A stretch of DNA of 58,137 bases from a virus. Its lineage: Duplodnaviria > Caudoviricetes. The notes under the pieces are model-generated. The model made no database searches. It was not told where the DNA came from and worked only from the letters and a program-made list of their open reading frames with translations. This document shows positions 3,520-32,717 of the stretch, one piece after another. The stretch's first letter is position 1, and each line of letters opens with the position of its first letter. Made by a program: the position numbers and the translations under genes. The DNA lies in IMG/VR virus record IMGVR_UViG_3300025520_000006, positions 1 through 58,137 of that record. One strand, 5' to 3'.

Positions 3520-3969
3520 ATGACAGTGAAGAAACGCGGTCGGCCGGCGTTCAAGCCGACGCCGGCCATTCGCCGAAAGGTCGAGCAGTGCGTATTCGGC
3601 GGAATGCCGAAGACCGAAATCGCCGCCGGGCTCGGCATCGACGAAAACACGCTGCGGAAGCATTTCGAGCACGAGCTCCACATCGGATTGAGCCGCCGCC
3701 GAGTCGAGGTTCTGGACTTGCTTTTCAGCGCAGCCCGCAAAGGCAACGTGACGGCGCAGAAGAAGCTCGAGGAGATGGGCGCGCGCGCCGCCGCAGAAGC
3801 CAACTTTCACGATCGGCCTGAAAATGAGCCTCGCCAGGCAGACGCCGTCTCGAAGGCGCCGAAGCTCGGGAAGAAGGAATCGCAGCAGATCGAAGCAGAA
3901 AATGCCGGCCTCGGCACGGATTGGGGTGACGATCTGCACATTGGCGCCGGCGGCCGTCTACCGAACTGA
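3520..3969 (+). CDS. terS: Terminase small subunit
   Basis: N-terminal RGRP plus HTH (EIAAGLGIDENTLRKHF); overlaps the terL start. Confidence 0.8.
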   Translation: MTVKKRGRPAFKPTPAIRRKVEQCVFGGMPKTEIAAGLGIDENTLRKHFEHELHIGLSRRRVEVLDLLFSAARKGNVTAQKKLEEMGARAAAEANFHDRPENEPRQADAVSKAPKLGKKESQQIEAENAGLGTDWGDDLHIGAGGRLPN

Positions 3970-5687
3970 TGGCGGACTGGTCAACGGCTTGTCCGGATTG
4001 GGAGCGCCGCCTCCTCGCCGGCCAGTCGCTAGTCCCAAATCTCCCGCTTTTCACCGAGGAGGCAGATCGCGCGGAGCGCGTCTTCAAGAGGCTTCGCATC
4101 CCGGATCTTATCGGGACGCCGACGATGGGCGAGGTAGCTGGCCCTTGGCTGTTTCCGATCGTCAGGGCGATTTTCGGATCCTACGACGTCGACACTAATC
4201 GGCGAATGATCCAGGAATTCTTCTGGCTCATCGCGAAGAAGAACACGAAGACCAGTTCCGGCGCCGCGATCATGGTCGAGGCGCTGATCCTCAATCGCCG
4301 GCCAGAAGGTGAGTTCAATCTCGTCAGCGCGACGAAGGAGATAGCTGACATTTCGTTCCGCCAGGCATCTGGAACGATCCGGACTGATCCGGAGCTCGAC
4401 AAGACTTTCCAGGTCCAGAAGCACATTCGAACGATCACGCATCGGAGAACCGGAGCGACGCTAAAGGTCAAAGCTGCCGACACCGACGTGATCACCGGCG
4501 GCAAGGGCTCGACGCTGATTGACGAATTGCATGTCCTTGGATCGAAGAAGGACGCAGCAGACATCCTCGTCGAGATCCGCGGCGCGCTGGCGGCGCGTCC
4601 TGACGGCTTCCTGATCATCATCACCACGCAGTCGAAGGCGCCGCCGGAAGGCGTCTTCAAGAGCGAGCTCGGCAAGGCCCGCCTCGTGCGCGACGGTAAG
4701 CTGTCGCTGCCGCTTCTTCCGATCCTTTACGAACTGCCGGGGCGGCTCCAAGACGGCGACGGCTGGAAGGATCGCCGCTACTGGTCGGCTGTTAATCCGA
4801 ATCTGGGGCGCTCGGTCGACGAGGCGTTTCTCGAACGGTCGCTGCTGACGGCGGAGATCGAGGGCAAAGAAGAGCTGGCGCTCTTCGCCTCGCAACATTT
4901 CAATGTCGAGATCGGCTTGAAAATGAGATCGGATCGATGGGCCGGCACCGATTATTGGGAGAAGGCTGTCGAACCAGCGGTGACGCTCAAGCGAATCCTC
5001 GAATGCTGCGAAGTCATCACGATTGGCATCGATGGCGGTGGTCTCGATGATCTGCTGAGCCTCTATGTCATCGGGCGCGAGGCTACACCGAATAAGGACG
5101 TCAGGTTCCGCCGCTGGTTCGGATGGGGACACTCCTGGGCATTTAGCGATCCCGTAAACAAGGGCGGCGTATTGGAGCGACGTAAATCGGAAGTCGCGAA
5201 GCTGCGCGATTTCGAGGCGGTTGGCGAACTGACAATCTTCACGCGCATGGGCGACGACATCGAGGAGATGGTCGCCATCATCAAGACGGTCTTCGATTCC
5301 GGTAAGCTGGCAATGATTGGGCTCGATCCCGTTGGCGTCGGGGCCGTCGTGGACGCGATCGCCGATGCCGAGATCCGGAGCGACGGCGACGAAGAGATGA
5401 TCGTCGCGGTTTCGCAGGGCTACAAGCTGATGGGCGCCATCAAGACGGCGGAACGCAAGCTCGCCGACGGAACGCTCGTGCCCGCGGAGCAAGCCATCAT
5501 GGCGTGGGCGGTCGGCAATGCCCGCAACGAGCAAAAAGGCAACGCCATGATGATCACGAAGCAAGCGAGCGGAACGGCCAAGATCGATCCGCTCATGGCG
5601 ATGTTTGACGCGATCGCGCTTATGAGCACAAATCCAGAAGCTTCGGACGCCATTCCAGACGATTATGAACTGGCGGTGTGGGCGTGA
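3969..5687 (+). CDS. terL: Terminase large subunit
   Basis: Walker A-like KKNTKT, Walker B LIDELH, ITTQS coupling motif, GIDGGGLDDL nuclease motif, KIDPLMA. Confidence 0.95.
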   Translation: MADWSTACPDWERRLLAGQSLVPNLPLFTEEADRAERVFKRLRIPDLIGTPTMGEVAGPWLFPIVRAIFGSYDVDTNRRMIQEFFWLIAKKNTKTSSGAAIMVEALILNRRPEGEFNLVSATKEIADISFRQASGTIRTDPELDKTFQVQKHIRTITHRRTGATLKVKAADTDVITGGKGSTLIDELHVLGSKKDAADILVEIRGALAARPDGFLIIITTQSKAPPEGVFKSELGKARLVRDGKLSLPLLPILYELPGRLQDGDGWKDRRYWSAVNPNLGRSVDEAFLERSLLTAEIEGKEELALFASQHFNVEIGLKMRSDRWAGTDYWEKAVEPAVTLKRILECCEVITIGIDGGGLDDLLSLYVIGREATPNKDVRFRRWFGWGHSWAFSDPVNKGGVLERRKSEVAKLRDFEAVGELTIFTRMGDDIEEMVAIIKTVFDSGKLAMIGLDPVGVGAVVDAIADAEIRSDGDEEMIVAVSQGYKLMGAIKTAERKLADGTLVPAEQAIMAWAVGNARNEQKGNAMMITKQASGTAKIDPLMAMFDAIALMSTNPEASDAIPDDYELAVWA

Positions 5688-19797: not shown

Positions 19798-19992
19798 ATG
19801 ATAATTGTCGTTCCCGGTTTTTGCGGCGTGATCGCGGGGTTTATGCTTGCCGCGCTATGGATCGGCCTGTCTATGCTGGTCGGGTTTCAGCAGCCGGACC
19901 CAGACCAGCTTCTAGGGCTGGTAATGGTTTGCGCGGTCGTCGCGCCAATTATCGCGGTCGGGATTGTGATGTCCCTCGAACTCAAATCATAA
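19798..19992 (+). CDS. Small two-TM membrane protein (moron-like)
   Basis: Two hydrophobic stretches; flanked by a 12-bp direct repeat. Confidence 0.55.
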   Translation: MIIVVPGFCGVIAGFMLAALWIGLSMLVGFQQPDPDQLLGLVMVCAVVAPIIAVGIVMSLELKS

Positions 19993-24154: not shown

Positions 24155-26737
24155 ATGACTGAAGGAACGTCTTCGACTAACCTTTCTGTATCGGGCCGTC
24201 TTGACGAGTTTCTCGGCAATGCCGACCCCAACGGAACAGGCATGCAGGGGCCGTTTCGCGCTTCTGCTGCGAGCGTCGCCGCGCAGATTGCAGGCGGGAT
24301 TGCGCTTGAGGCGACGCCGCTTGGCGTTGAAACCAAAAGCCTCTCGACGCCGCCAGTCTCTCCAGTAACCGGCAACCGTTATGTCGTCGCGGCGGCGCCG
24401 ACCGGCGCCTGGGCGGGGCACGCAAATGACATCGCGACATGGGGCGGATCGGCCTGGAGTTTCATCACGCCGTCCGCCGGCTACGTCGTCAACGTCCTCG
24501 ATCTCGGGCAGCTCTATTATTACAACGGAACGTCGGGCGCATGGACCGCGTTCTTCGCCGATACGCTGTTTTTTGCGACATGGGCGGCGCTGAGCGCTGT
24601 CACGGGCACGAAGGCTGGCCAGGCGGCGCAGGTATTTGACGACGCGAGCACGCACACCGATCCGGTCGTCGGCGGAACTGTCGACAACGAGGGGCTCTAT
24701 TCATGGTCGACGTCTCCCGCCGGCTGGCGGCGCGTCGCCGACAACTCCGTCACCAACATGGCGCCGCTATCGTCGCCGGCGTTCACGGACGCGCCGACGA
24801 CGACCGTTCCGCCGCGCGAAGACTACTCGACGCGAATCCCAACCACCTCGTCGGTCGCCGACGAAGCCGGCGCTGAAATCCGCTCGGTCACAAACAACAT
24901 CCTGCGCTCGGAAGAGCTGGACAACGCGATCTGGAACAAGTCCGGCGTCACCGTCTCGGCGAACAGCGCGGTCGGGCCAGACGGCGCGTCGTCACTCGAC
25001 AAGGTTCAGGAAGACTCCTCGACCGGCGCGCATACGATCTTCCGGGCGATCGCCGCTGTCGCGGTCGGCACGCGAGTTACGGTCTCGTGGCATGTCCGCG
25101 CTGCGGAGCTTGATAAATTCGTGATGGCCGCCGTCAACGGATCGGTCGCCTACCAGGCCCGGTTTGATCTGACCAACAAAACCGCGACGCCGACGACGCT
25201 GACCGTCAATCTCGTCGCCGAGATTCACGAAGTGTCCTCCGGTCTTTTCCGGTGCTCGATTTCCTATGTCGTCACCGACGGTGCCGCCGCGAACACGTAT
25301 TCGCTCACTTTGGTCAATGTTTCGAACGCCACGTCCTATGCCGGAACGCCGGGGAACGGCATTCACGCAGGCTATGCGCAGGTCGAATACAGTCCTGTGC
25401 TGCGGCCCTACGTCAAAACCACGTCGGGCGCCGCCTCGAAAAGCTTTGCGCTGCGCAAGCCTTATGTGCGCCGCTACCTCGCCAACACGAACGGTTTCGG
25501 CTGCGACGACGACAGCAATATCTGCTACATCGTCGCCATCGGCGGACAATCCAACGGCGATGGCCAGGGGACGGATTCGCTTGTCGCGACCTCGGCGCTC
25601 TACTCCGGCAACGCGTTGATGCTGGCGGGATCGACCTATGGTCCGCACGCCAAAGGCCAGCGCGCCGCCGCCTTCACCGATCTGATCGAAGTCACTGCCG
25701 GCGCATCGAAAGAAACCGCCTGCAGCGGCTTGGTGAGTGGAATGATCAGCCGTGTGCAGAGCGAAGTGGGCAAGACAATTCGCGTATTGGCTTTTGCGCA
25801 TGCGCTCGGCGGAACGGCATATGAGCAGTTGAAACGCGGCGGCATCGGGTCGCTGGATTTTCGCTCATATCAGTGGTTCCTGACGGCGCTCGAAGACGCG
25901 GCGGAGACCGCGCGTGCGAATGGTTGGCGCCCGGTGTTTCTCATCCATAACTGGATGGGCAATGAGGTGAATCAAAACACGCCCGCCGAGCAGTGGGCGA
26001 CGTTCATGTGCCAGAACTACCGGATGATGGATGAAGACATTCGTCGCATCACCGGGCAGACGGAGAATTGGGTCTCCTTCATTGATCAGGTGAGTTATGT
26101 CGGCAACGCCGCCAACGCCTCGGCGTTCGCGCCGACGATCGTTGAAGGCAACCGCCTCGCGGCGCTGCGCAATTCCCGCATTAAACTCGGCAATCCGACC
26201 TATCAGCTCGAAAGAAGCGCGGCGTCCAACGCGATTCACTTTTCATGTGTCGGTCAGAACCGACGCGGGCAGGCGTTGGCGCGCGCCGTCTGCGCCGAGA
26301 TGTTCGGAACAGGCTACGAGCCCTTCGCGATGCGCAAGGCCTACCGCAGCGCGGCGGCGGAGATCACCGTCGAGTTCGCGGGATCGATGGCCGGCAGTCT
26401 CGTGATGGACACGAGCGACGCGATTGTGACCTCAACGGGCCTGCCGAGCGGAAATTATTACGGGTTCCGCTTCGACGATCGAAGCGGTGCATCGCCGTCG
26501 ATCACCGGGCACAGCATTTCGGGCCGCAGCCTCCTTCTGACGTTGTCTGCAACGCCCTCGGCGAACCACGCGTGGCGCTTGGCCTATGCAACCGAGCGCA
26601 ATCCGAGCGTCATCACGGACGGCCCGGCGACCGGCGCGCGCGGCTGCCTGCGCCTCGATACCGCCCATACGATGCTCTACTCGCTGAGCGACGATTACGA
26701 TTGGTGCCACCCCGGCATTCTCGAAGTGGCGAAGTGA
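24155..26737 (+). CDS. Tail fibre/spike with DUF2793-like, carbohydrate-binding-like and SGNH/sialate O-acetylesterase-like domains
   Basis: YVVAAAPTGAWAG...IA.W.G..W.F.TP..G; NNILRSEEL....W; GQSN...W.GNE...IH. Confidence 0.8.
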   Translation: MTEGTSSTNLSVSGRLDEFLGNADPNGTGMQGPFRASAASVAAQIAGGIALEATPLGVETKSLSTPPVSPVTGNRYVVAAAPTGAWAGHANDIATWGGSAWSFITPSAGYVVNVLDLGQLYYYNGTSGAWTAFFADTLFFATWAALSAVTGTKAGQAAQVFDDASTHTDPVVGGTVDNEGLYSWSTSPAGWRRVADNSVTNMAPLSSPAFTDAPTTTVPPREDYSTRIPTTSSVADEAGAEIRSVTNNILRSEELDNAIWNKSGVTVSANSAVGPDGASSLDKVQEDSSTGAHTIFRAIAAVAVGTRVTVSWHVRAAELDKFVMAAVNGSVAYQARFDLTNKTATPTTLTVNLVAEIHEVSSGLFRCSISYVVTDGAAANTYSLTLVNVSNATSYAGTPGNGIHAGYAQVEYSPVLRPYVKTTSGAASKSFALRKPYVRRYLANTNGFGCDDDSNICYIVAIGGQSNGDGQGTDSLVATSALYSGNALMLAGSTYGPHAKGQRAAAFTDLIEVTAGASKETACSGLVSGMISRVQSEVGKTIRVLAFAHALGGTAYEQLKRGGIGSLDFRSYQWFLTALEDAAETARANGWRPVFLIHNWMGNEVNQNTPAEQWATFMCQNYRMMDEDIRRITGQTENWVSFIDQVSYVGNAANASAFAPTIVEGNRLAALRNSRIKLGNPTYQLERSAASNAIHFSCVGQNRRGQALARAVCAEMFGTGYEPFAMRKAYRSAAAEITVEFAGSMAGSLVMDTSDAIVTSTGLPSGNYYGFRFDDRSGASPSITGHSISGRSLLLTLSATPSANHAWRLAYATERNPSVITDGPATGARGCLRLDTAHTMLYSLSDDYDWCHPGILEVAK

Positions 26738-26738
26738 C

Positions 26739-26918
26739 CTACTCGACGGGGGCGAAGGCGCCGCGGTAGGTGACGTCGCCAACCGCTTCGATCGCCTTCA
26801 GGACATTGTCCATCTCGGCGCGCGCCATTCTGACAGGCTTCGGCTCGCGCCCTTCGTCCAGCGCTTTCGAAATATAGGCTGTGACCATCTGGTCAAGAAT
26901 GATGTCGCGGTCGGTCAT
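26739..26918 (-). CDS. Small hypothetical protein (opposite-strand moron)
   Basis: AGGAG RBS before ATG (MTDRDIILDQ...); convergent with the tail fibre gene. Confidence 0.55.
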   Translation of the reverse strand: MTDRDIILDQMVTAYISKALDEGREPKPVRMARAEMDNVLKAIEAVGDVTYRGAFAPVE

Positions 26919-27025
26919 AATGCGTCTCCTAAAAATGAAGCGCGCATAAAGCCATAGCTGTAACGTTTTGGCAAGAATCCGCCGCCGGGCGGCTCCCGGC
27001 AACTCCCCCGCAAAGGACTACCGAC

Positions 27026-27274
27026 ATGACCGAAGCCGAACAGGCGGCGCTCGATCTGCTTGCCGAACAGCGCCAAACGATGGTTGCGCTGCACACGATG
27101 ACGATCGAAAAGAACAGCGAGATTTCGTCGCTGAAAGAGCAGCTCGCCACCTTTCAAACGGCGGACGCGCAAACCGCCGTCGCGCAGGAGCGCGAATGGT
27201 TCGACGCGTTTCGCGATGCTGTCTTTCCGCCGCCGGCGCCGATGGAGCAGCCGACCGAAGAAGTCGCCGGCTAA
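27026..27274 (+). CDS. Hypothetical coiled-coil protein
   Basis: AAGGA RBS, ATG, 82 aa. Confidence 0.7.
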   Translation: MTEAEQAALDLLAEQRQTMVALHTMTIEKNSEISSLKEQLATFQTADAQTAVAQEREWFDAFRDAVFPPPAPMEQPTEEVAG

Positions 27275-27302
27275 CCCACCGCTCTACGAGCCGGAGGCGC
27301 GC

Positions 27303-27374
27303 ATGTTTCGCGTCGCTTTATGGTCCGTCGCCGCGATGCTGATTGCGGCGACGGTCCTGCACTACGCGATCTGA
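27303..27374 (+). CDS. Single-TM microprotein 1 (23 aa)
   Basis: MFRVALWSVAAMLIAATVLHYAI; GGAGG RBS; TGATG coupling to the next ORF. Confidence 0.6.
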   Translation: MFRVALWSVAAMLIAATVLHYAI

Positions 27375-27460
27375 TGCGTGCGCGGCTGTTCTGGGCGGCG
27401 GCCGGCGTTGCTCTGGTCCTGACCGTCGCCCGATTCCTCTACCAGTTGAGGCGGCTATGA
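27374..27460 (+). CDS. Single-TM microprotein 2 (28 aa)
   Basis: MRARLFWAAAGVALVLTVARFLYQLRRL; ATGA coupling. Confidence 0.6.
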   Translation: MRARLFWAAAGVALVLTVARFLYQLRRL

Positions 27461-27594
27461 TCCTGAACGCTCTTGCGCTCATCGGCGGGCTGTGGGTCGG
27501 CGCAAAAGCGGTCAGCTTCATGCGCTGGCATTTCTTCACCAATCGCGACGGCAATTCTGGTCGCTCCGGCCACCACTACAGCGAGGAGCGATGA
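27457..27594 (+). CDS. Single-TM microprotein 3 (45 aa)
   Basis: MILNALALIGGLWVGAKAVSFMRW...; GAGG RBS; ATGA coupling. Confidence 0.6.
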   Translation: MILNALALIGGLWVGAKAVSFMRWHFFTNRDGNSGRSGHHYSEER

Positions 27595-27710
27595 TGTTTC
27601 CGCCCGATATCGAGCGCAACGCCAAGCTGCTCTTACTCGCCGTCATCTTGATCTTCGTCGCCAGCCACGCGTGGCAGATCGCCAAGGCGGTCTACCGCAT
27701 CGCCTTCTGA
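27591..27710 (+). CDS. Single-TM microprotein 4 (39 aa)
   Basis: MMFPPDIERNAKLLLLAVILIFVASHAW...; GAGGAG RBS. Confidence 0.65.
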   Translation: MMFPPDIERNAKLLLLAVILIFVASHAWQIAKAVYRIAF

Positions 27711-27721
27711 AGGAACGCGAG

Positions 27722-27802
27722 ATGATCGAGCTTTCCTGCGTCGTCGCGCTTGCGATGATCTTTATCGTCGTCGAGCGCTGGATCGAGTTCAACCGCGCCT
27801 GA
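27722..27802 (+). CDS. Single-TM microprotein 5 (26 aa)
   Basis: MIELSCVVALAMIFIVVERWIEFNRA; AAGGA RBS; TGATG coupling. Confidence 0.6.
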   Translation: MIELSCVVALAMIFIVVERWIEFNRA

Positions 27803-28005
27803 TGATCCCCGTCCCTCAAGATGCAGAGATCGTCTGGCGATGCTTTGTGATCGCCAAGCACCGGGATGGGGTCGGTATTTCCGACATCATCGCGCGATCG
27901 CGGCGCGAGCGCATGCCGATGACGCGCGCCGACGTTCTCCAAATCCTGCGCCGCTATGTCGATCGGTTAGACAATGACGTGCGGCAGACGCGCGCCGCCC
28001 GCTAA
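27802..28005 (+). CDS. Hypothetical protein (possible small HTH)
   Basis: Coupled to the preceding microprotein; 67 aa. Confidence 0.55.
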   Translation: MIPVPQDAEIVWRCFVIAKHRDGVGISDIIARSRRERMPMTRADVLQILRRYVDRLDNDVRQTRAAR

Positions 28006-28053
28006 CCACCAAACTCCGCCCACCAAAACCCTGACTAATAGGAGAAAGCGCCA

Positions 28054-28938
28054 ATGTGGCCGCTGCAGCGAGACTGTGACTCGTTCTATGGACGCCCGAT
28101 CAATCGCGACGGCTCGATCAGCCGAGCGTGGGAATCGGTCAACCTCGTCACCATCAAGCCGCCGTTCACGGTCTATTACGGCACGACGCCGGTCAAAGGC
28201 ATTCGCATTCATCGCCGATGCGCCGAAAGCCTGTCGCGCGTGCTCGATCGGATCTGGGTCGCCGCCGGGCGCCAGCAATCGGTTGTCGACGCCTGGGGCG
28301 CGAGCAAGTTCGCCGGTTCATGGGTCGTGCGCAACAAGCGCGGCGGCGGGACGCTGTCGATGCACGCCTATGGCTGCGCGATCGATCTCGATCCGGGGCG
28401 CAACGCCTTTCACTCGACGCGGCCGAACTTCGCGAAAATGCCGGCGTTCAAAGTCGTCGAGGCGTTCGAAGCGGAGGGCTGGGTCTGGGGTGGGCGCTGG
28501 TCCGGTCGCTCCTGCGACGGCATGCACTTTCAGGCGGCGCGCACGACGGCTGTGACCGCCCGCCAATTGCGCGCGGCGGGTTCGCGCGAGGTCGCCGCAA
28601 TTGATTCCGCCAAGACGACGGGGGTCGGGATGATCGGAAGCGGCGCGATTGGTTGGGGCATCCTGTCGCAAACCAACGATGCGGCCCAGCAGGCGATCGG
28701 CGTCGCCAATACAGTCGCGGACGGCCGCGCCACGCTCTCCACCTTCGAGGCCAACTGGCAAATCATCGCGATCATTGCGCTCGGATGCCTTGCTTTGGTC
28801 TTCGCTTGGCTTTGGTGGCGCGCGCAGCAGGCGGGTCTCTACGCCAGAATCGACAACGCGCAGACCGGAACGCGCGGCGACCAGGTGCTCGAAGACTTCC
28901 CACAGGAAGGCGACGTGGCGGATGGCATTAAATTGTAG
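28054..28938 (+). CDS. Endolysin, M15-family peptidase with C-terminal TM segment(s)
   Basis: R..RGG..LSMHAYGCAID...WGG.W....DGMHFQ; hydrophobic C-terminal helix; AGGAG RBS. Confidence 0.9.
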   Translation: MWPLQRDCDSFYGRPINRDGSISRAWESVNLVTIKPPFTVYYGTTPVKGIRIHRRCAESLSRVLDRIWVAAGRQQSVVDAWGASKFAGSWVVRNKRGGGTLSMHAYGCAIDLDPGRNAFHSTRPNFAKMPAFKVVEAFEAEGWVWGGRWSGRSCDGMHFQAARTTAVTARQLRAAGSREVAAIDSAKTTGVGMIGSGAIGWGILSQTNDAAQQAIGVANTVADGRATLSTFEANWQIIAIIALGCLALVFAWLWWRAQQAGLYARIDNAQTGTRGDQVLEDFPQEGDVADGIKL

Positions 28939-29005
28939 CTCGCTGCGGTTGGGCGGCTGACGAATCCGCGCCCAGCGGTCTCTGGGCACAATAAGGAGAA
29001 GGCAG

Positions 29006-29281
29006 ATGCAACCAGCTGTCCGAGCGAAGTTCCGCTGCGACTCAATCACTCACCTGATCACGCATGTCTATGATCAGGATGCAAAGCAGTCATATCCGAC
29101 GCCGGCGCGCACAATCACCATGTCGCCGGTTTACGGGAACGGCGATCCTAACCATGAAAACACGAAATTCTGGCAGGCCTCGCCGGGCGGTCGCTTGGAG
29201 CTGAGCGTCGTCAATGCCGCCGCAGTAGAGCGCTTCGAGGTCGGCAAGGAATACTATCTCGACTTCACGCCAGCGGATTGA
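29006..29281 (+). CDS. Conserved phage hypothetical protein
   Basis: VRAKF.C...EN.KFW.ASP.G...F..GKEYYLDFTPA; AAGGAG upstream. Confidence 0.75.
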   Translation: MQPAVRAKFRCDSITHLITHVYDQDAKQSYPTPARTITMSPVYGNGDPNHENTKFWQASPGGRLELSVVNAAAVERFEVGKEYYLDFTPAD

Positions 29282-29351
29282 TCATCACGCGCGCAGTCTT
29301 CGGGCTGCGCGCGACTTCTTTGCAAAAAAAACGCAAACAAGAGAGGCTGAC

Positions 29352-29450
29352 ATGTGCGGAGGCGTTGACCCACGGCCGACGATCGGGACCGTTATCGGCA
29401 TTCTCGTCTGCCTATTCTTGGTCTGGTTTCTGATCTGGGGGCGTCCGTGA
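29352..29450 (+). CDS. Single-TM microprotein (32 aa)
   Basis: MCGGVDPRPTIGTVIGILVCLFLVWFLIWGRP; GAGG RBS; GTGA coupling. Confidence 0.55.
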   Translation: MCGGVDPRPTIGTVIGILVCLFLVWFLIWGRP

Positions 29451-29749
29451 GCGTGAAAGCAACTCGCGTCGACGATATCGACGAGAAGGACGGGCCACCG
29501 GGGGCGTTCGAATTCTTCGATACGGCGGATCGAAAAGACGCAGGCATAATTTTCATCTGTCCATGCGGCTGTAGGAGCCATGGCGCGCTCGAATTTAGGC
29601 CGTCGCCGTCACCGTCATGGGAATGGAACGGCGACCGCGAAGCCCCAACACTGACCCCTAGCGTTCACGATCAAATCACCTTGCGCGACGGGAGCAAGCG
29701 GACGCACTGGCACGGCTACCTGACCGCCGGCGTATGGGAGTCATGCTGA
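29447..29749 (+). CDS. DUF6527-like Cys/His protein
   Basis: F.CPCGC...W.WNGD...PTL.PSV...WHGYLT.G.W. Confidence 0.75.
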   Translation: MSVKATRVDDIDEKDGPPGAFEFFDTADRKDAGIIFICPCGCRSHGALEFRPSPSPSWEWNGDREAPTLTPSVHDQITLRDGSKRTHWHGYLTAGVWESC

Positions 29750-29750
29750 A

Positions 29751-30209
29751 ATGATCTGGCTGCTCACCAAAGTCTTTTCGCCGCTCGCGCCGATCTTCCA
29801 CTTCATCGGCGATCATCGCTACGGCAGCATCGCTGTGCTGCTCATCGTCGCAGCCGCCGCGGCGTGGGTCTATGTGCCCGTCGCCGGCCGCAAGATCGCC
29901 GGCGGGCTCATCGTCGCCGCCGTCGCGGCGGGCTTTTTCGACTGGGGCTACTCCTACCGCGCGGCGATCGATCGCAAAGCATGGGCGCAGGCCGAAAAGG
30001 CCCGGGCGGACGCCGAGGAAAAAGAAGAGAAGCGCCGCGAGGATGCGGTCGACTCCGCGGCGACATGGGCGCGCGAAGAGGCGAGACGGTTGGCGTCCGA
30101 AGAAGAGAATCGCGCAAAGCAAAGCAAGGAGATCGATGATGCGGCTCGTAATAGCCATCGCCCTGGCCTCAGCCTTCCTTTCGTCCTGCAACTCGGCAAA
30201 ATACGCTGA
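29751..30209 (+). CDS. Inner-membrane spanin (Rz-like)
   Basis: N-terminal TM helices followed by a charged coiled coil; in the lysis module. Confidence 0.7.
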   Translation: MIWLLTKVFSPLAPIFHFIGDHRYGSIAVLLIVAAAAAWVYVPVAGRKIAGGLIVAAVAAGFFDWGYSYRAAIDRKAWAQAEKARADAEEKEEKRREDAVDSAATWAREEARRLASEEENRAKQSKEIDDAARNSHRPGLSLPFVLQLGKIR

Positions 30210-30540
30210 CCATGCGCCGGTCGTCGTGTTGGCGACGCCGAAGGCGCAGCCCCCGAAAAAGCTGACGAAGCCCTGCGCTGGCAATGCGCGCCTGCCGCAT
30301 CGCGCGCTAGACGAAGGCGAGACGGCGAGCCTGTGGGGGCGCGATCGCAAAGCGAACGCCGACTGCGGCCCGCGCCATAGCGCGCTCGTCAAATGGCTGC
30401 ACAGGCGCGACGCCGGCCTTGCCCGCCAGCCGCTACCCGAGCCGCCCAAAGAGCCGGAAGAGCCTGCGCCCGTCGCGGCTGAGCCGGTCTTCCGCAACCC
30501 GCTCGCCGGTTTGTTCGGCGGCAACGCAAGCGAGGAATAA
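30136..30540 (+). CDS. Outer-membrane spanin lipoprotein (Rz1-like)
   Basis: MMRLVIAIALASAFLSSC lipobox; Pro-rich; overlaps the i-spanin 3' end; AAGGAG RBS. Confidence 0.75.
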   Translation: MMRLVIAIALASAFLSSCNSAKYADHAPVVVLATPKAQPPKKLTKPCAGNARLPHRALDEGETASLWGRDRKANADCGPRHSALVKWLHRRDAGLARQPLPEPPKEPEEPAPVAAEPVFRNPLAGLFGGNASEE

Positions 30541-30547
30541 TCTGATC

Positions 30548-30829
30548 ATGCCGACGCAGACTTGCCACAGCCTTTCTCGGATGATCATCGACAGCATGTT
30601 TCAGACCACCTCAGACAAGCTCGCCTGGGTTGCGGCAGCCGGTGGGGCGTCAGCGCCGGCGTTGGCCGATTATCTGCACGGCATCAACAGCGCCGCGGTC
30701 TGGCTCGGGCCGCCGCTCGCCGCCATCTTCGTCTTCTCGAAGACGATCCTGGTTTGGGTGCAGATCGCGAAAGAGCGACAAGGAAAAAACGGCGGCGCGG
30801 CCGGCGATCCGCATCATCATCCGGATTGA
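30548..30829 (+). CDS. Probable holin-like membrane protein (start uncertain)
   Basis: Hydrophobic segments plus basic C-terminus; last gene of the lysis cluster. Confidence 0.5.
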   Translation: MPTQTCHSLSRMIIDSMFQTTSDKLAWVAAAGGASAPALADYLHGINSAAVWLGPPLAAIFVFSKTILVWVQIAKERQGKNGGAAGDPHHHPD

Positions 30830-30855
30830 TCAATTCAGGCCGGCATATCCGAAGA

Positions 30856-31143
30856 TCACGACGCCTTCCTTTTCTTGCCGCCACGCTTCTTCCGCAGCGC
30901 TCTTAAATCCCACGGGCCGAGCCGCCGGCGGAAGATGTAGCCATTCGACTGACCGATGTCAGCGACCCATCGCGACTCGCCGATCTTGGGGCCCGCGCTG
31001 GCGCAGAGGCCAGCGTAGTCTTGCAAGGGGACAATAAATTCCGGTGAGTCCGAGCCAACCGCTGCGCTATTGCCTCCCATGCAGACGACATACATAACTT
31101 CCCTGTCCTCCCCAACGCCTTCCGGCTTTTTTGGCTCGCTCAT
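30856..31143 (-). CDS. Hypothetical protein (moron)
   Basis: AGGAG upstream of ATG (MSEPKKPEG...); opposite strand. Confidence 0.55.
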   Translation of the reverse strand: MSEPKKPEGVGEDREVMYVVCMGGNSAAVGSDSPEFIVPLQDYAGLCASAGPKIGESRWVADIGQSNGYIFRRRLGPWDLRALRKKRGGKKRKAS

Positions 31144-31162
31144 TTCATCACGCTCCTGAATC

Positions 31163-31193
31163 AACCCCGTCGGCTCCGGCCGGCGGGGTTTTT
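31163..31193 (+). terminator. Rho-independent terminator ending the late operon
   Basis: AACCCCGTCGGC-TCCG-GCCGGCGGGGTT followed by a T-run. Confidence 0.8.
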
Positions 31194-31229
31194 TGGCGTT
31201 TTGGGGCGGAAATTATGCATTTTCTATGC

Positions 31230-31445
31230 ATGACGCCAACGCCCTATACTCTCCCGCTCCGGATCCGCAAGAGCGGCGAATCCTTCGTCGTCGAAGACTC
31301 CGGCGGCGTCGCGCTCGCCTATGTCTATTTCGAAGACGAGCCGACCCGGCGCGGGCTGGTCAGGCGGCTCTCGGCCGACGACGCCAAGTGCGTGGCGCAG
31401 GCGATCGCCCGGGCGCTGACGGCGACGGCGCCGAACACCGAGTGA
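31230..31445 (+). CDS. Small hypothetical protein next to attP
   Basis: MTPTPYTLPLRI...AYVYFEDEP.RR; start uncertain. Confidence 0.6.
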   Translation: MTPTPYTLPLRIRKSGESFVVEDSGGVALAYVYFEDEPTRRGLVRRLSADDAKCVAQAIARALTATAPNTE

Positions 31446-31451
31446 ACAAAC

Positions 31452-31707
31452 TGTGCCGACTCTTGTGCCCGCGCGAACCGCTTTCGTTTGCGCCACATGC
31501 GCGCTATGCGCGCGCTTCGTTCTCTCACAAGTCATTGATCTTGGCGGAAGGGGTGGGATTCGAACCCACGGTGGAGTTGCCCCCACGCCGGTTTTCAAGA
31601 CCCGTCAACTTTTGCGGGTTTACTATACGTAACACATTGTATAACCAGGAATTCATGCAGACTCCACTTCTCCAAACCGGCGGTCATGTGCCGTATTTTG
31701 TGCCGAC
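31452..31707. promoter_or_regulatory. Integrase arm-type sites flanking the att core
   Basis: Paired TGTGCC repeats at ~31452-31470 and ~31687-31707; AAGTCATTGAT IHF-like site at ~31529. Confidence 0.65.
31542..31602 (-). other. attP: attP core: 3' half of tRNA-Ser(UGA)
   Basis: Minus strand reads GGTC-TTGAAA-ACCG, long variable arm, GTGGGTTCGAATCCCAC, CCCTTCCG-CCA; no 5' half; 50 bp from the integrase stop. Confidence 0.9.
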
Positions 31708-32717
31708 CCCCGCTTCGCGCGCTCGACCTCTTCCGGCGTGAGGAACTCCAGATAGATCTCCGTCGTCTTCACGCTCGTGTGGCCGAGGATCTTCGATAGG
31801 TCGTAGATTGACCCGCCCTTGCGGAGATATTCGACCGCGTAGAAATGGCGCAAGTCGTGGAAGCGAAAGCGCGAGAACCCTCGCCCGGCTTTGGCCTCTC
31901 GCCCCATTAATGAGCGTCGCAGATGCGTGAAATCGGAGGCGGCCTGGCTGAAGGGCGCTCCGTCCTCGCGGCAGAAAATAAGGGTTGATCCTAGCGCGAC
32001 CGGCTGTGCCGAGATATGTGCCGACGCCTCGTCCGAAAGCGGAATGACTCGGCGCTTATTGCCCTTGCCGATCACTTCGAGCGTATCGGCAGCGCGATTG
32101 AATCCTCTGCGCTGGGCAGTTACGAGTTCGTTCTGCCGACATCCGGTGAGCCGAGCGGCTCGGATTAGGGCGCCGAAGGCGCGGCTCGCTGCGCCTATCA
32201 CGGACTCGACGTCCGCAGGCTCCGGTAGGACGATCGGATCGCGGCGTTCCTTAATCAGGCGGCGCTTGGATAGCGTAGGATTGCCCTCGCGCCAGCCTTG
32301 CGCCTCGGCGTAATCCAGCACGCTGGAAACGGCCGTAAGATCGCGGCGCACCGTCGCCGGCGACACTTCAGCCTTCCGAGCAGCGATCAGCGCAGCGATA
32401 GCTGGTCCGTCGATCTCGTCGATCGCGAGTCGCTCGAGATGTGGGCGCGCCTTGGCGAGTGAATCGGCATAGCGCGAAGCGGTAGTCGGCGCGAGGTTGG
32501 AGAACTCGTGTTCGGCCCAGGCCGTCACGACCTCGAGCCATGGTCTTCGACGCTCCCCGCGCCAGCGCGCCGCCTTGATCTCCTCGATCTTCTTATCGCG
32601 CAGTCGCCGCGCAGTTTTGACATCGCCCGTTCGTAGGCTTTCTCGATGTTCGACGCCCCGGATGGTGGCGCGCAACCACCAGATTCCGCTGCGTTTATAG
32701 AGGTTTTCCTCAGACAT
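31653..32717 (-). CDS. int: Tyrosine integrase
   Basis: TGCR..EL, GKG.K.R, FHDLRH, LGH.....T..Y catalytic motifs. Confidence 0.97.
   Translation of the reverse strand: MSEENLYKRSGIWWLRATIRGVEHRESLRTGDVKTARRLRDKKIEEIKAARWRGERRRPWLEVVTAWAEHEFSNLAPTTASRYADSLAKARPHLERLAIDEIDGPAIAALIAARKAEVSPATVRRDLTAVSSVLDYAEAQGWREGNPTLSKRRLIKERRDPIVLPEPADVESVIGAASRAFGALIRAARLTGCRQNELVTAQRRGFNRAADTLEVIGKGNKRRVIPLSDEASAHISAQPVALGSTLIFCREDGAPFSQAASDFTHLRRSLMGREAKAGRGFSRFRFHDLRHFYAVEYLRKGGSIYDLSKILGHTSVKTTEIYLEFLTPEEVERAKRGSAQNTAHDRRFGEVESA

Follow-up and report, generated by a model that had tools for sequence, protein, structure and literature searches.

Known lysis cassettes and the present locus

Small membrane proteins are familiar components of phage lysis cassettes, and some cassettes hold several of them. 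The holin-like P1 proteins LydA, LydB, LydC and LydD are described as all contributing to lysis, their mixture being thought to suit the host and the conditions (PMC9025707), and phages of Gordonia and Mycobacterium are described as having two to four holin-like transmembrane (TM) proteins per lysis cassette (PMC9671378). The subject of the present analysis is an array of five consecutive plus-strand genes (m1 to m5) for microproteins of 23, 28, 45, 39 and 26 amino acids (aa), found in the virus record IMGVR_UViG_3300025520_000006, the whole 58,137-bp stretch of which was analysed and is called “the window” below. The array lies between the tail-fibre gene and the endolysin gene, close to the right end of the late genes. 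On the sequence evidence set out here, m1 to m5 are real, separately translated genes belonging to an accessory cassette; their role is a more tentative matter, and it is with slightly less than even confidence that we read them as late-made accessory modulators of the lysis trigger and not as the core holin.

Like the P1, Gordonia and Mycobacterium cassettes, the array sets several unrelated small membrane proteins beside an endolysin. The proteins of those cassettes, however, have 79-180 aa, one to four helices and sizeable charged domains in the account cited (PMC9671378), whereas the array members are bare helices of 23-45 aa (m3 with an additional 23-residue tail) encoded by a chain of overlapping genes, and no sequence relation to the known proteins was found in Pfam or PHROGs. 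Sizes given for holins are 65-95 aa with two transmembrane domains (TMDs) for class II and more than 95 aa with three for class I (PMC12283622), and one-TMD holin-like proteins are given as 79-145 aa with a charged C-terminal domain (PMC9671378).

Another comparison is with the releasin gp25 of phage Mu (DUF2730), described as a single-helix, N-out/C-in protein that is not a holin, is produced along with the lysis genes and aids the release of a membrane-tethered endolysin (PMC9239132). The same topology is predicted for m3 from its charge distribution. However, gp25 is given in that source as a 99-aa protein with a 73-aa acidic cytoplasmic domain, while the m3 tail has 23 residues and is basic; none of m1 to m5 matched DUF2730 in Pfam at E values up to 1; and the window endolysin is anchored C-terminally, whereas the partner of gp25 is an N-terminal signal-arrest-release (SAR) endolysin. 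For the endolysin itself there is a parallel in M4Lys of Salmonella phage BSPM4, whose C-terminal TMD is reported to be needed for holin-independent lysis (PMC7143992). The likeness is one of architecture: in both, the catalytic domain comes first, and a transmembrane helix and a charged tail make up the C-terminal end; M4Lys differs in its catalytic domain, and the parts of that paper used here report no microprotein array upstream of it.

In size and in having a single helix, the array members also resemble type I toxins (TisB, Hok) and lysis proteins of single-stranded RNA (ssRNA) phages (LysM), which are about 20-50 aa long and depolarise the membrane or block a membrane enzyme. Genes of these kinds are solitary and have their own regulation (by antisense RNA, or as overlapping genes of ssRNA phages), in contrast to the coupled chain of five different genes in a presumed late operon of a double-stranded DNA phage seen here; searches of family libraries (Pfam, PHROGs, NCBIfam) gave no homology. 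In the open-access papers searched, no description was found either of a coupled chain of three to five unrelated 23-45 residue proteins 5' of an endolysin or of the m3 and m4 families defined below.

Five separately translated genes

A sequence-only reading of this stretch had proposed five consecutive ORFs at 27303-27802, each with one hydrophobic helix, joined by overlaps or carrying their own Shine-Dalgarno sites (GGAGG, GAGG, GAGGAG, AAGGA), and not obviously similar to one another. All of this was borne out by reading and translating the sequence (Table 1). The junctions are TGATG at m1/m2, ATGA at m2/m3 and m3/m4, an 11-nt spacer with AAGGA at m4/m5, and TGATG at m5/g67. Since m2 has no Shine-Dalgarno site of its own, it must depend on coupling to m1. 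The array does stand upstream of the endolysin, as proposed, with the qualification that a 67-aa soluble gene, g67, intervenes between m5 and the endolysin.

Helices were called from uncharged stretches, which span 14-20 residues in each ORF, and from 15-residue Kyte-Doolittle (KD) means, the best of which range from 1.89 to 2.71; by hydropathy, each of m1 to m5 has the one predicted transmembrane helix that is the minimum for a holin. When the five and m6, a sixth micro-ORF further downstream, were compared in all 15 pairs by local alignment against 1000 shuffles, no pair was significant: the best, m4-m5, had z 2.4 and was reached by 3.1% of shuffles. Small-xxx-small motifs can be read in m1 and m3. 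The charges of m3 predict that its N-terminus faces outward and that the conserved tail is cytoplasmic. Complex prediction for m3 with m4 (alignments A3 and A6) gave no answer, with a score of 0.02 in a run without controls. The idea that m1 and m4 might be light-harvesting-like helices containing histidine was rejected, the His residues not being conserved in the relative L023 (see below).

Third-position G+C content (GC3) is 0.79, 0.79, 0.76, 0.90 and 0.85 in m1 to m5, with low second-position values (GC2); 11 long genes of the window have first-, second- and third-position values (GC1/GC2/GC3) of 0.63/0.50/0.77 (standard deviation of GC3 0.02). When GC3 is followed in sliding windows of 90 nt, its maximum moves to another frame at the ORF junctions (0>2>1>0>2>1). 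Longer alternative or antisense ORFs over the array have GC3 of at most 0.66 in six of eight cases, the exceptions being a 5'-extended m4 frame (0.73) and a 49-codon antisense ORF (0.76). Hydrophobic ORFs of this size are uncommon: the six frames of the whole window contain 774 ORFs of 20-60 aa, of which 22 reach a KD mean of at least 2.0 over 15 residues, and a rough Poisson estimate for four such ORFs within 500 bp is 5e-5 (m3, at 1.89, falls below the cut).

The array in related phages

Searching IMG/VR with the flanking 82-aa (g82) and 67-aa (g67) proteins gave three contigs, L022, L023 and L024. Also compared were L025, a contig of a metagenome-assembled genome (MAG) labelled Methylocystis sp., and L026, a more distant contig from an alphaproteobacterial MAG, in which g82 is 36% identical.

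All five ORFs are present in L022 in the same order and with the same overlaps; its m1 has 25 aa, starting two codons upstream, and its m3 starts with GTG. L023 and L024, which are alike here, have m1 (19/23 residues identical), m2, a divergent m4 (13/37 residues identical) and m5, and are without m3; at the site of the missing m3 in L023, the stop codon of m2 overlaps the start codon of m4, so that coupling is kept across the deletion. Homologues of m2 were found by tblastn with E values of 2e-3 (L022), 1.5e-6 (L023/L024) and 3e-4 (L026), and m5 is identical at 22/26 residues in L022 and 23/26 in L023. L026 has m2, m3 and m4 in order, with overlaps (tblastn E 3e-4, 4e-13 and 3e-4); tblastn and inspection of the locus found no m1 there, and m4 is followed by an unrelated hydrophobic ORF in the place of m5, the N-terminal half of g67, and a Peptidase_M15_4 endolysin. 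Array size is therefore five in the window and L022, four in L023/L024, and three recognizable members plus one unrelated hydrophobic ORF in L026. In L025, the g82 homologue is separated from the endolysin by 15 nt, and m1 to m5 and g67 are absent; of the downstream module, the contig has retained m6, the 152-aa and 93-aa proteins and the lipoprotein, the 93-aa protein being 89% identical to that of the window.

Wherever it occurs (window, L022, L023/L024, L026), the array is 5' of the endolysin, despite three different catalytic domains, and in L026 it stays with the endolysin although g82 is elsewhere in the lysis module. As judged from these loci, m1 to m5 and g67 are an accessory, modular cassette inserted between g82 and the endolysin, and the array is dispensable as a set.

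Other searches added no further arrays. A DNA pattern for m5 found only the three known IMG/VR contigs (and two metagenome contigs that are apparently the same records), and an m3 alignment found only the L022 contig in IMG/VR. Upstream synteny was seen in none of the seven loci inspected (L002, L004, L006-L010) among 19 endolysin-related IMG/VR loci. In a phage GenBank collection, 3.6 kb around the array matched two records, both in the catalytic part of the endolysin only.

Ratios of nonsynonymous to synonymous substitution (dN/dS) were calculated by the Nei-Gojobori method, with p values from one-sided Fisher tests. For m1 to m5 pooled, dN/dS is 0.37 between the window and L022 (p 1.7e-5) and 0.41 between the window and L023 (p 4e-4); values for the flanking g82 and g67 are 0.26-0.36, and those for single array genes run from 0.11 (m4, window-L022) to 0.94 (m4, L022-L023). 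The array boundaries are unchanged across lineages at a synonymous divergence (dS) of about 0.5-0.7. A separate DNA metagenome run differs from the window at no fewer than 17 positions inside the ORFs; among the 17 best-supported differences, which are the ones listed, 11 are synonymous and six are conservative replacements. Conserved arrays and dN/dS had been suggested as checks on the initial proposal, and both came out in favor of the ORFs being genes, with the same frames kept in relatives and purifying selection acting on them.

The m3 and m4 families

The cluster and profile searches cover m3 and m4, the other three (m1, m2, m5) being too short for them. Among 5.8 billion proteins, m3 has counterparts in 10 clusters, with identities of 70-87%. 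When a profile was run exhaustively against 1.84 billion representatives, 10 matches were obtained with E of 0.001 or less, nine of them stand-alone proteins of 42-58 aa; the tenth, covering 14 residues of a 422-aa protein, was weak and was taken as spurious. Within the family the helix varies, and the tail, R-W-x-F-F-x-x-R-[DS]-G-x-S-G-R-x(2,3)-H-W-S, is nearly invariant (alignments A3 and A4), with R30, G32, S34 and H40 found in 11/11 sequences of A4. The window m3, with its N-terminal helix and a tail of the pattern RW.FF.NRDGNSGRSG.HWS.ER, has the features that define this family at about 42-58 aa.

With the m4 profile, 10 clusters were found, the window's own among them; they fall into two subtypes. 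F3, P4, P5 and D6 are invariant in 12/12 sequences of alignment A6, and the window m4 shows the family's defining length (about 38-41 aa), its M(M)FPPD start, its single helix and its A-[IV]-Y near the C-terminus. An m3 cluster and an m4 cluster share a source, each having one 581-base contig from it. By these alignments, m3 and m4 each define a microprotein family without annotation.

Leads to known families were few. In Pfam and PHROGs, at E values up to 1, the sole exception to an absence of matches for m1 to m5 was a sub-threshold one of m4 to DUF1206 (E 0.073). ESM Atlas feature searches gave best scores of 0.79 (m3) and 0.84 (m4), under the 0.9 taken as a lead level; the m3 search had a DUF1378 cluster at rank 28, with a score of 0.77, far below that threshold and usable as a pointer only, and m3 had no match to DUF1378 in Pfam. 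DUF1378 comprises small membrane proteins of lambdoid prophages. Genomes were searched with the m3 profiles, 17-23 first-look candidates being scored per genome: the order of G001 gave one weak match (E 3.8e-4) in 401 genomes and its family none in 301, and the order of G002 gave one in 401, G002 itself. The m3 family would accordingly be rare in species-representative genomes, among those searched.

The lysis region and its transcription

The window is a complete or nearly complete virus record (CheckV estimate 94%) with a G+C content of 58-67%. PHROG matches on the plus strand include the large terminase, portal, major head protein, tape measure and tail-fibre protein. The window carries both an integrase and a tape measure gene and is therefore the genome of a temperate, long-tailed phage. 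Its hosts are probably alphaproteobacteria.

A 48-nt spacer with AGGAGA separates g67 from the endolysin, whose C-terminal region of about 125 residues (about 28564-28938) contains a strong helix (KD 3.05 over 15 residues, at about residues 233-255) and an acidic tail. This region is common, at 28-40% identity, to L022 (4160-5131), L023/L024 (L023 3854-4819) and L025 (422-1387), and the catalytic domains joined to it differ: Peptidase_M15_4 in the window, Phage_lysozyme in L022, and GH19 in L023 and L025. Catalytic domains have therefore been swapped on a constant membrane anchor.

An intact g67 is found in the window and in L023; in L022 (about 3787-3990) it is disrupted by a 2-nt insertion, and in L026 (670-786) only its N-terminal half is present, while the micro-ORFs adjoining the damaged g67 in L022 and L026 remain intact. 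A model of g67 (pLDDT 84) predicts a three-helix bundle; Foldseek found no match to it in the PDB at E of 0.001 or less, the best rows (E of at least 1.5) being helix-turn-helix-like (small terminase, resolvase), and g67 had one match only in the 5.8-billion-protein set. In L026 (1844-2878), g82 lies in the lysis module, where the next genes encode a holin-like protein of 59 aa with two helices and a spanin-like pair, and because of this position g82 may be lysis-associated rather than a tail-fibre helper. On the minus strand between the tail-fibre gene and g82 there is also an 87-codon ORF (26739-27002), which matches no family and for which L022 and L024 have no counterpart.

Downstream of the endolysin, the order is a 91-aa gene, a hairpin, m6, a DUF6527 protein, the 152-aa protein, the lipoprotein and the 93-aa protein. 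The sixth micro-ORF, also part of the sequence-only reading, is present: m6 is 63-66% conserved in L023/L024 (L023 5030-5128) and L025 (1743-1841), and its place in L022 is taken by an analogue of 35 aa (5135-5242). It overlaps the next gene in all of them, that gene being, in the window, the DUF6527 gene inserted before the 152-aa gene. Because it is kept in relatives, including the array-less L025, m6 can be regarded as a core, and not an accessory, microprotein of the lysis module. From their architecture, the 152-aa and 134-aa proteins are a putative spanin-like pair and the 93-aa protein, which is conserved in the window, L022, L024 and L025, a candidate conventional holin; L026 has, besides the array, its 59-aa two-helix, conventional-looking protein and its spanin-like pair. 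Elsewhere in the window, a 54-codon ORF among the tail genes (19828-19992) has two hydrophobic segments and a coding-like GC3 of 0.70.

The hairpin is the first strong one downstream of the array and probably splits the lysis region into two transcription units. The four terminator-like sites listed between the array and the endolysin are weak (6-8 pairs), and all lie inside micro-ORFs. A crude scan with a sigma-70 consensus found neither a promoter-like site nor a terminator belonging to the array itself. A stretch of about 45 nt upstream of g82 (about 26975-27025) is conserved in the window, L022, L023 and L025 (AATCCGCCGCCGG..TCCCGGCAAC..CCCGCAAAAGGA); its predicted fold is no more stable than those of shuffled sequences (z 0.64), and it may be a promoter or regulator site marking the start of the lysis unit. 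An Rfam scan of 26000-31500 found no family. Two metatranscriptome libraries from separate studies, whose habitat label and year agree with those of the probable source sample, contain contigs identical to 26988-27326, 26933-27295 and 27576-27940, the third of which spans m4, m5 and the start of g67. These RNA-library contigs have no strand, are patchy over 5.5 kb and may reflect DNA carry-over; they were not counted as proof of transcription, and no meaning attaches to the uncovered parts.

Table 1. Positions of the array and of neighboring features in the window
Feature	Position	Strand	Description
Tail-fibre protein	24155-26737	+	PHROG match; DUF2793 in Pfam
g82	27026-27274	+	82-aa acidic protein; left border of cassette; conserved element of about 45 nt just upstream
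m1	27303-27374	+	23 aa; single hydrophobic helix; own GGAGG; stop overlaps m2 start (TGATG)
m2	27374-27460	+	28 aa; single helix between Arg clusters; coupled to m1
m3	27457-27594	+	45 aa; N-terminal helix with invariant GG..G, then 23-residue basic/aromatic tail; preceded by GAGG
m4	27591-27710	+	39 aa; invariant N-terminal FPPD, one helix, C-terminal A.YR; preceded by GAGGAG
m5	27722-27802	+	26 aa; short hydrophobic core of 14-15 residues between Glu residues; own AAGGA; stop overlaps g67 start
g67	27802-28005	+	67-aa basic soluble protein; translationally coupled to m5; gained or lost with the array
Endolysin	28054-28938	+	294 aa; Peptidase_M15_4 (E 2e-16); PHROG endolysin (E 1e-23); C-terminal region with strong transmembrane helix
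Terminator-like hairpin	29288-29313	+	11 pairs, 9 of them G-C; after the 91-aa gene
m6	29352-29450	+	32 aa; motif GVDP.RP, then single helix; overlaps start of next gene
152-aa membrane protein	29751-30209	+	Candidate i-spanin-like protein from its make-up; charged helical C-terminal part; no family match
134-aa lipoprotein ORF	30136-30540	+	Candidate o-spanin; lipobox LSSC; PHROG Rz-like spanin (E 3.9e-4); overlaps 3' end of 152-aa gene
93-aa protein	30548-30829	+	Candidate conventional holin from its make-up; two hydrophobic segments, charged C-terminus; no family match
Tyrosine-type integrase	31653-32717	-	PHROG match

Possible roles of the array

If m1 to m5 are accessory modulators of the lysis trigger, they would be produced late, together with the endolysin, and inserted as single-pass proteins in the cytoplasmic membrane. 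The coupled chain (m1>m2>m3>m4, then m5>g67) would head a transcription unit that includes the endolysin, and its overlaps would set the ratios of the microproteins. These could then act on membrane integrity or on membrane-bound lysis proteins, adjusting the timing or manner of membrane permeabilisation or depolarisation by advancing or delaying it: they would help or restrain the membrane-anchored endolysin and the conventional membrane proteins of lysis, in the manner of holins and antiholins or of a releasin, and gain or loss of single members would retune the timing of lysis.

Several observations weigh against a role of this kind. Four of the five are far below the size of any holin class in the papers cited, and a charged tail is found only in m3 (23 residues). 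No meaningful match for m1 to m6, g67 or g82 was found in Pfam, PHROGs, NCBIfam or PADLOC. Between L022 and L023, the pooled dN/dS is 0.69, which is not significant (p 0.07), and m2 and m4 are strongly diverged between lineages. The array is not distributed in step with the endolysin anchor, which L025 has although it lacks the array and which is missing from the array-bearing L026; it also shows no co-variation with the catalytic type of the endolysin. Strong conservation of the cytoplasmic m3 tail points to a specific partner, and a host protein could fill that place equally well. Finally, late expression of the array is deduced from position only, the RNA contigs being of the strandless and possibly DNA-derived kind described above.

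The main rival, unlikely in our estimate and still to be given serious weight, is that the microproteins are independent membrane effectors unrelated to lysis, serving in host takeover, superinfection exclusion or inhibition of envelope enzymes, with each binding and modulating or blocking a membrane protein of the host or of an incoming phage. Binding a membrane protein so as to modulate or block it is the mode of action of small membrane regulators in bacteria and of single-gene lysis proteins in ssRNA phages. The members are mutually unrelated and gained or lost singly, and the whole cassette is dispensable in L025; m3 has a helix that varies and a cytoplasmic tail of about 20 residues that is nearly invariant in about 10 representatives, as expected for a specific contact, and m4 has its invariant N-terminal FPPD. 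The interval between tail-fibre and lysis genes in temperate phages, where the cassette is found, often houses accessory genes. The modular turnover and the invariant m3 tail fit independent effectors at least as well as they fit a role in lysis, and they are likewise compatible with the panel of membrane-protein inhibitors offered in the sequence-only reading. On the other side, the array has no promoter-like site or terminator of its own in the crude consensus scan, is coupled to genes of the lysis unit, is still beside the endolysin in the rearranged L026, and has no match to a defence family in PADLOC. Only position and coupling favor lysis over effectors here.

A bolder version of the lysis role, which we think improbable, is a modular set of micro-holins: peptides of type I toxin size, made late and in ratios fixed by coupling, would together either depolarise the membrane or weaken the hold of the endolysin's C-terminal anchor, while single members (for example through the m3 tail) would dock on specific partners, so that swaps would retune lysis to the host. 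Slightly more doubtful again is an obligate multi-subunit micro-holin, in which all or some of the microproteins would be the actual hole- or pinhole-former of the phage group, releasing the anchored endolysin by a depolarisation like that of type I toxins. The array has the classical holin position 5' of the endolysin, no protein of the window lysis region matches a holin family in Pfam, PHROGs or NCBIfam, and the small-xxx-small motifs of m1 and m3 could be read in the same sense; since the endolysin has a membrane anchor of its own, depolarisation alone might suffice, for which the account of M4Lys offers a precedent (PMC7143992). An essential holin of several components is nevertheless unlikely, because L025 keeps the module without the array, because the array's composition varies between three and five members, and because other membrane lysis candidates are at hand, the conserved 93-aa two-helix protein in the window and, paired with the array in L026, the 59-aa two-helix protein and spanin pair. 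Of the original suggestion of a micro-holin/antiholin or lysis-timing system, then, the link to the lysis module stands and the essential multi-component holin does not.

A non-coding origin can be given very little weight. The five ORFs might be chance ORFs, or the frameshift-broken relic of a larger gene for a multi-pass membrane protein: all are under the usual gene-calling cut-offs, an antisense frame is open over the whole array in L023, and every successive ORF is in the -1 frame of the previous one, as serial frameshifts might give. Yet the ATGA and TGATG overlaps by themselves account for the -1 step; every ORF begins with a start codon of its own, in four cases behind a Shine-Dalgarno site; the boundaries have been kept at the dS given above, with a clear synonymous excess; about 10 clusters each of m3 and of m4 consist of independent proteins some 40-45 aa long; and the antisense frame does not stay open in the window, L022 or L026. 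Chance or decay is very unlikely because of the codon signature, synteny, substitution pattern and families taken together. Least likely of all is an adaptation to hosts with extensive intracytoplasmic membranes, by which the proteins would reach or permeabilise internal stacks: Methylocystis has internal membranes, but L025, from a MAG labelled with that genus and the only relative assigned to any named methanotroph genus, is precisely the relative that lacks the array, and this part of the sequence-only reading found no support.

Implications

Genes of fewer than 50 codons are mostly missed by annotation, and here there are five in a row with the marks of real genes. If these proteins tune or trigger lysis, the lower size limit of lysis-control proteins would be extended, and the array would be a compact model for the control of membrane integrity by bare transmembrane helices; if they form a modular micro-holin set, they would be the smallest lysis-timing proteins known. 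If their targets are instead host membrane proteins, the array would be a ready-made panel of natural single-helix inhibitors.

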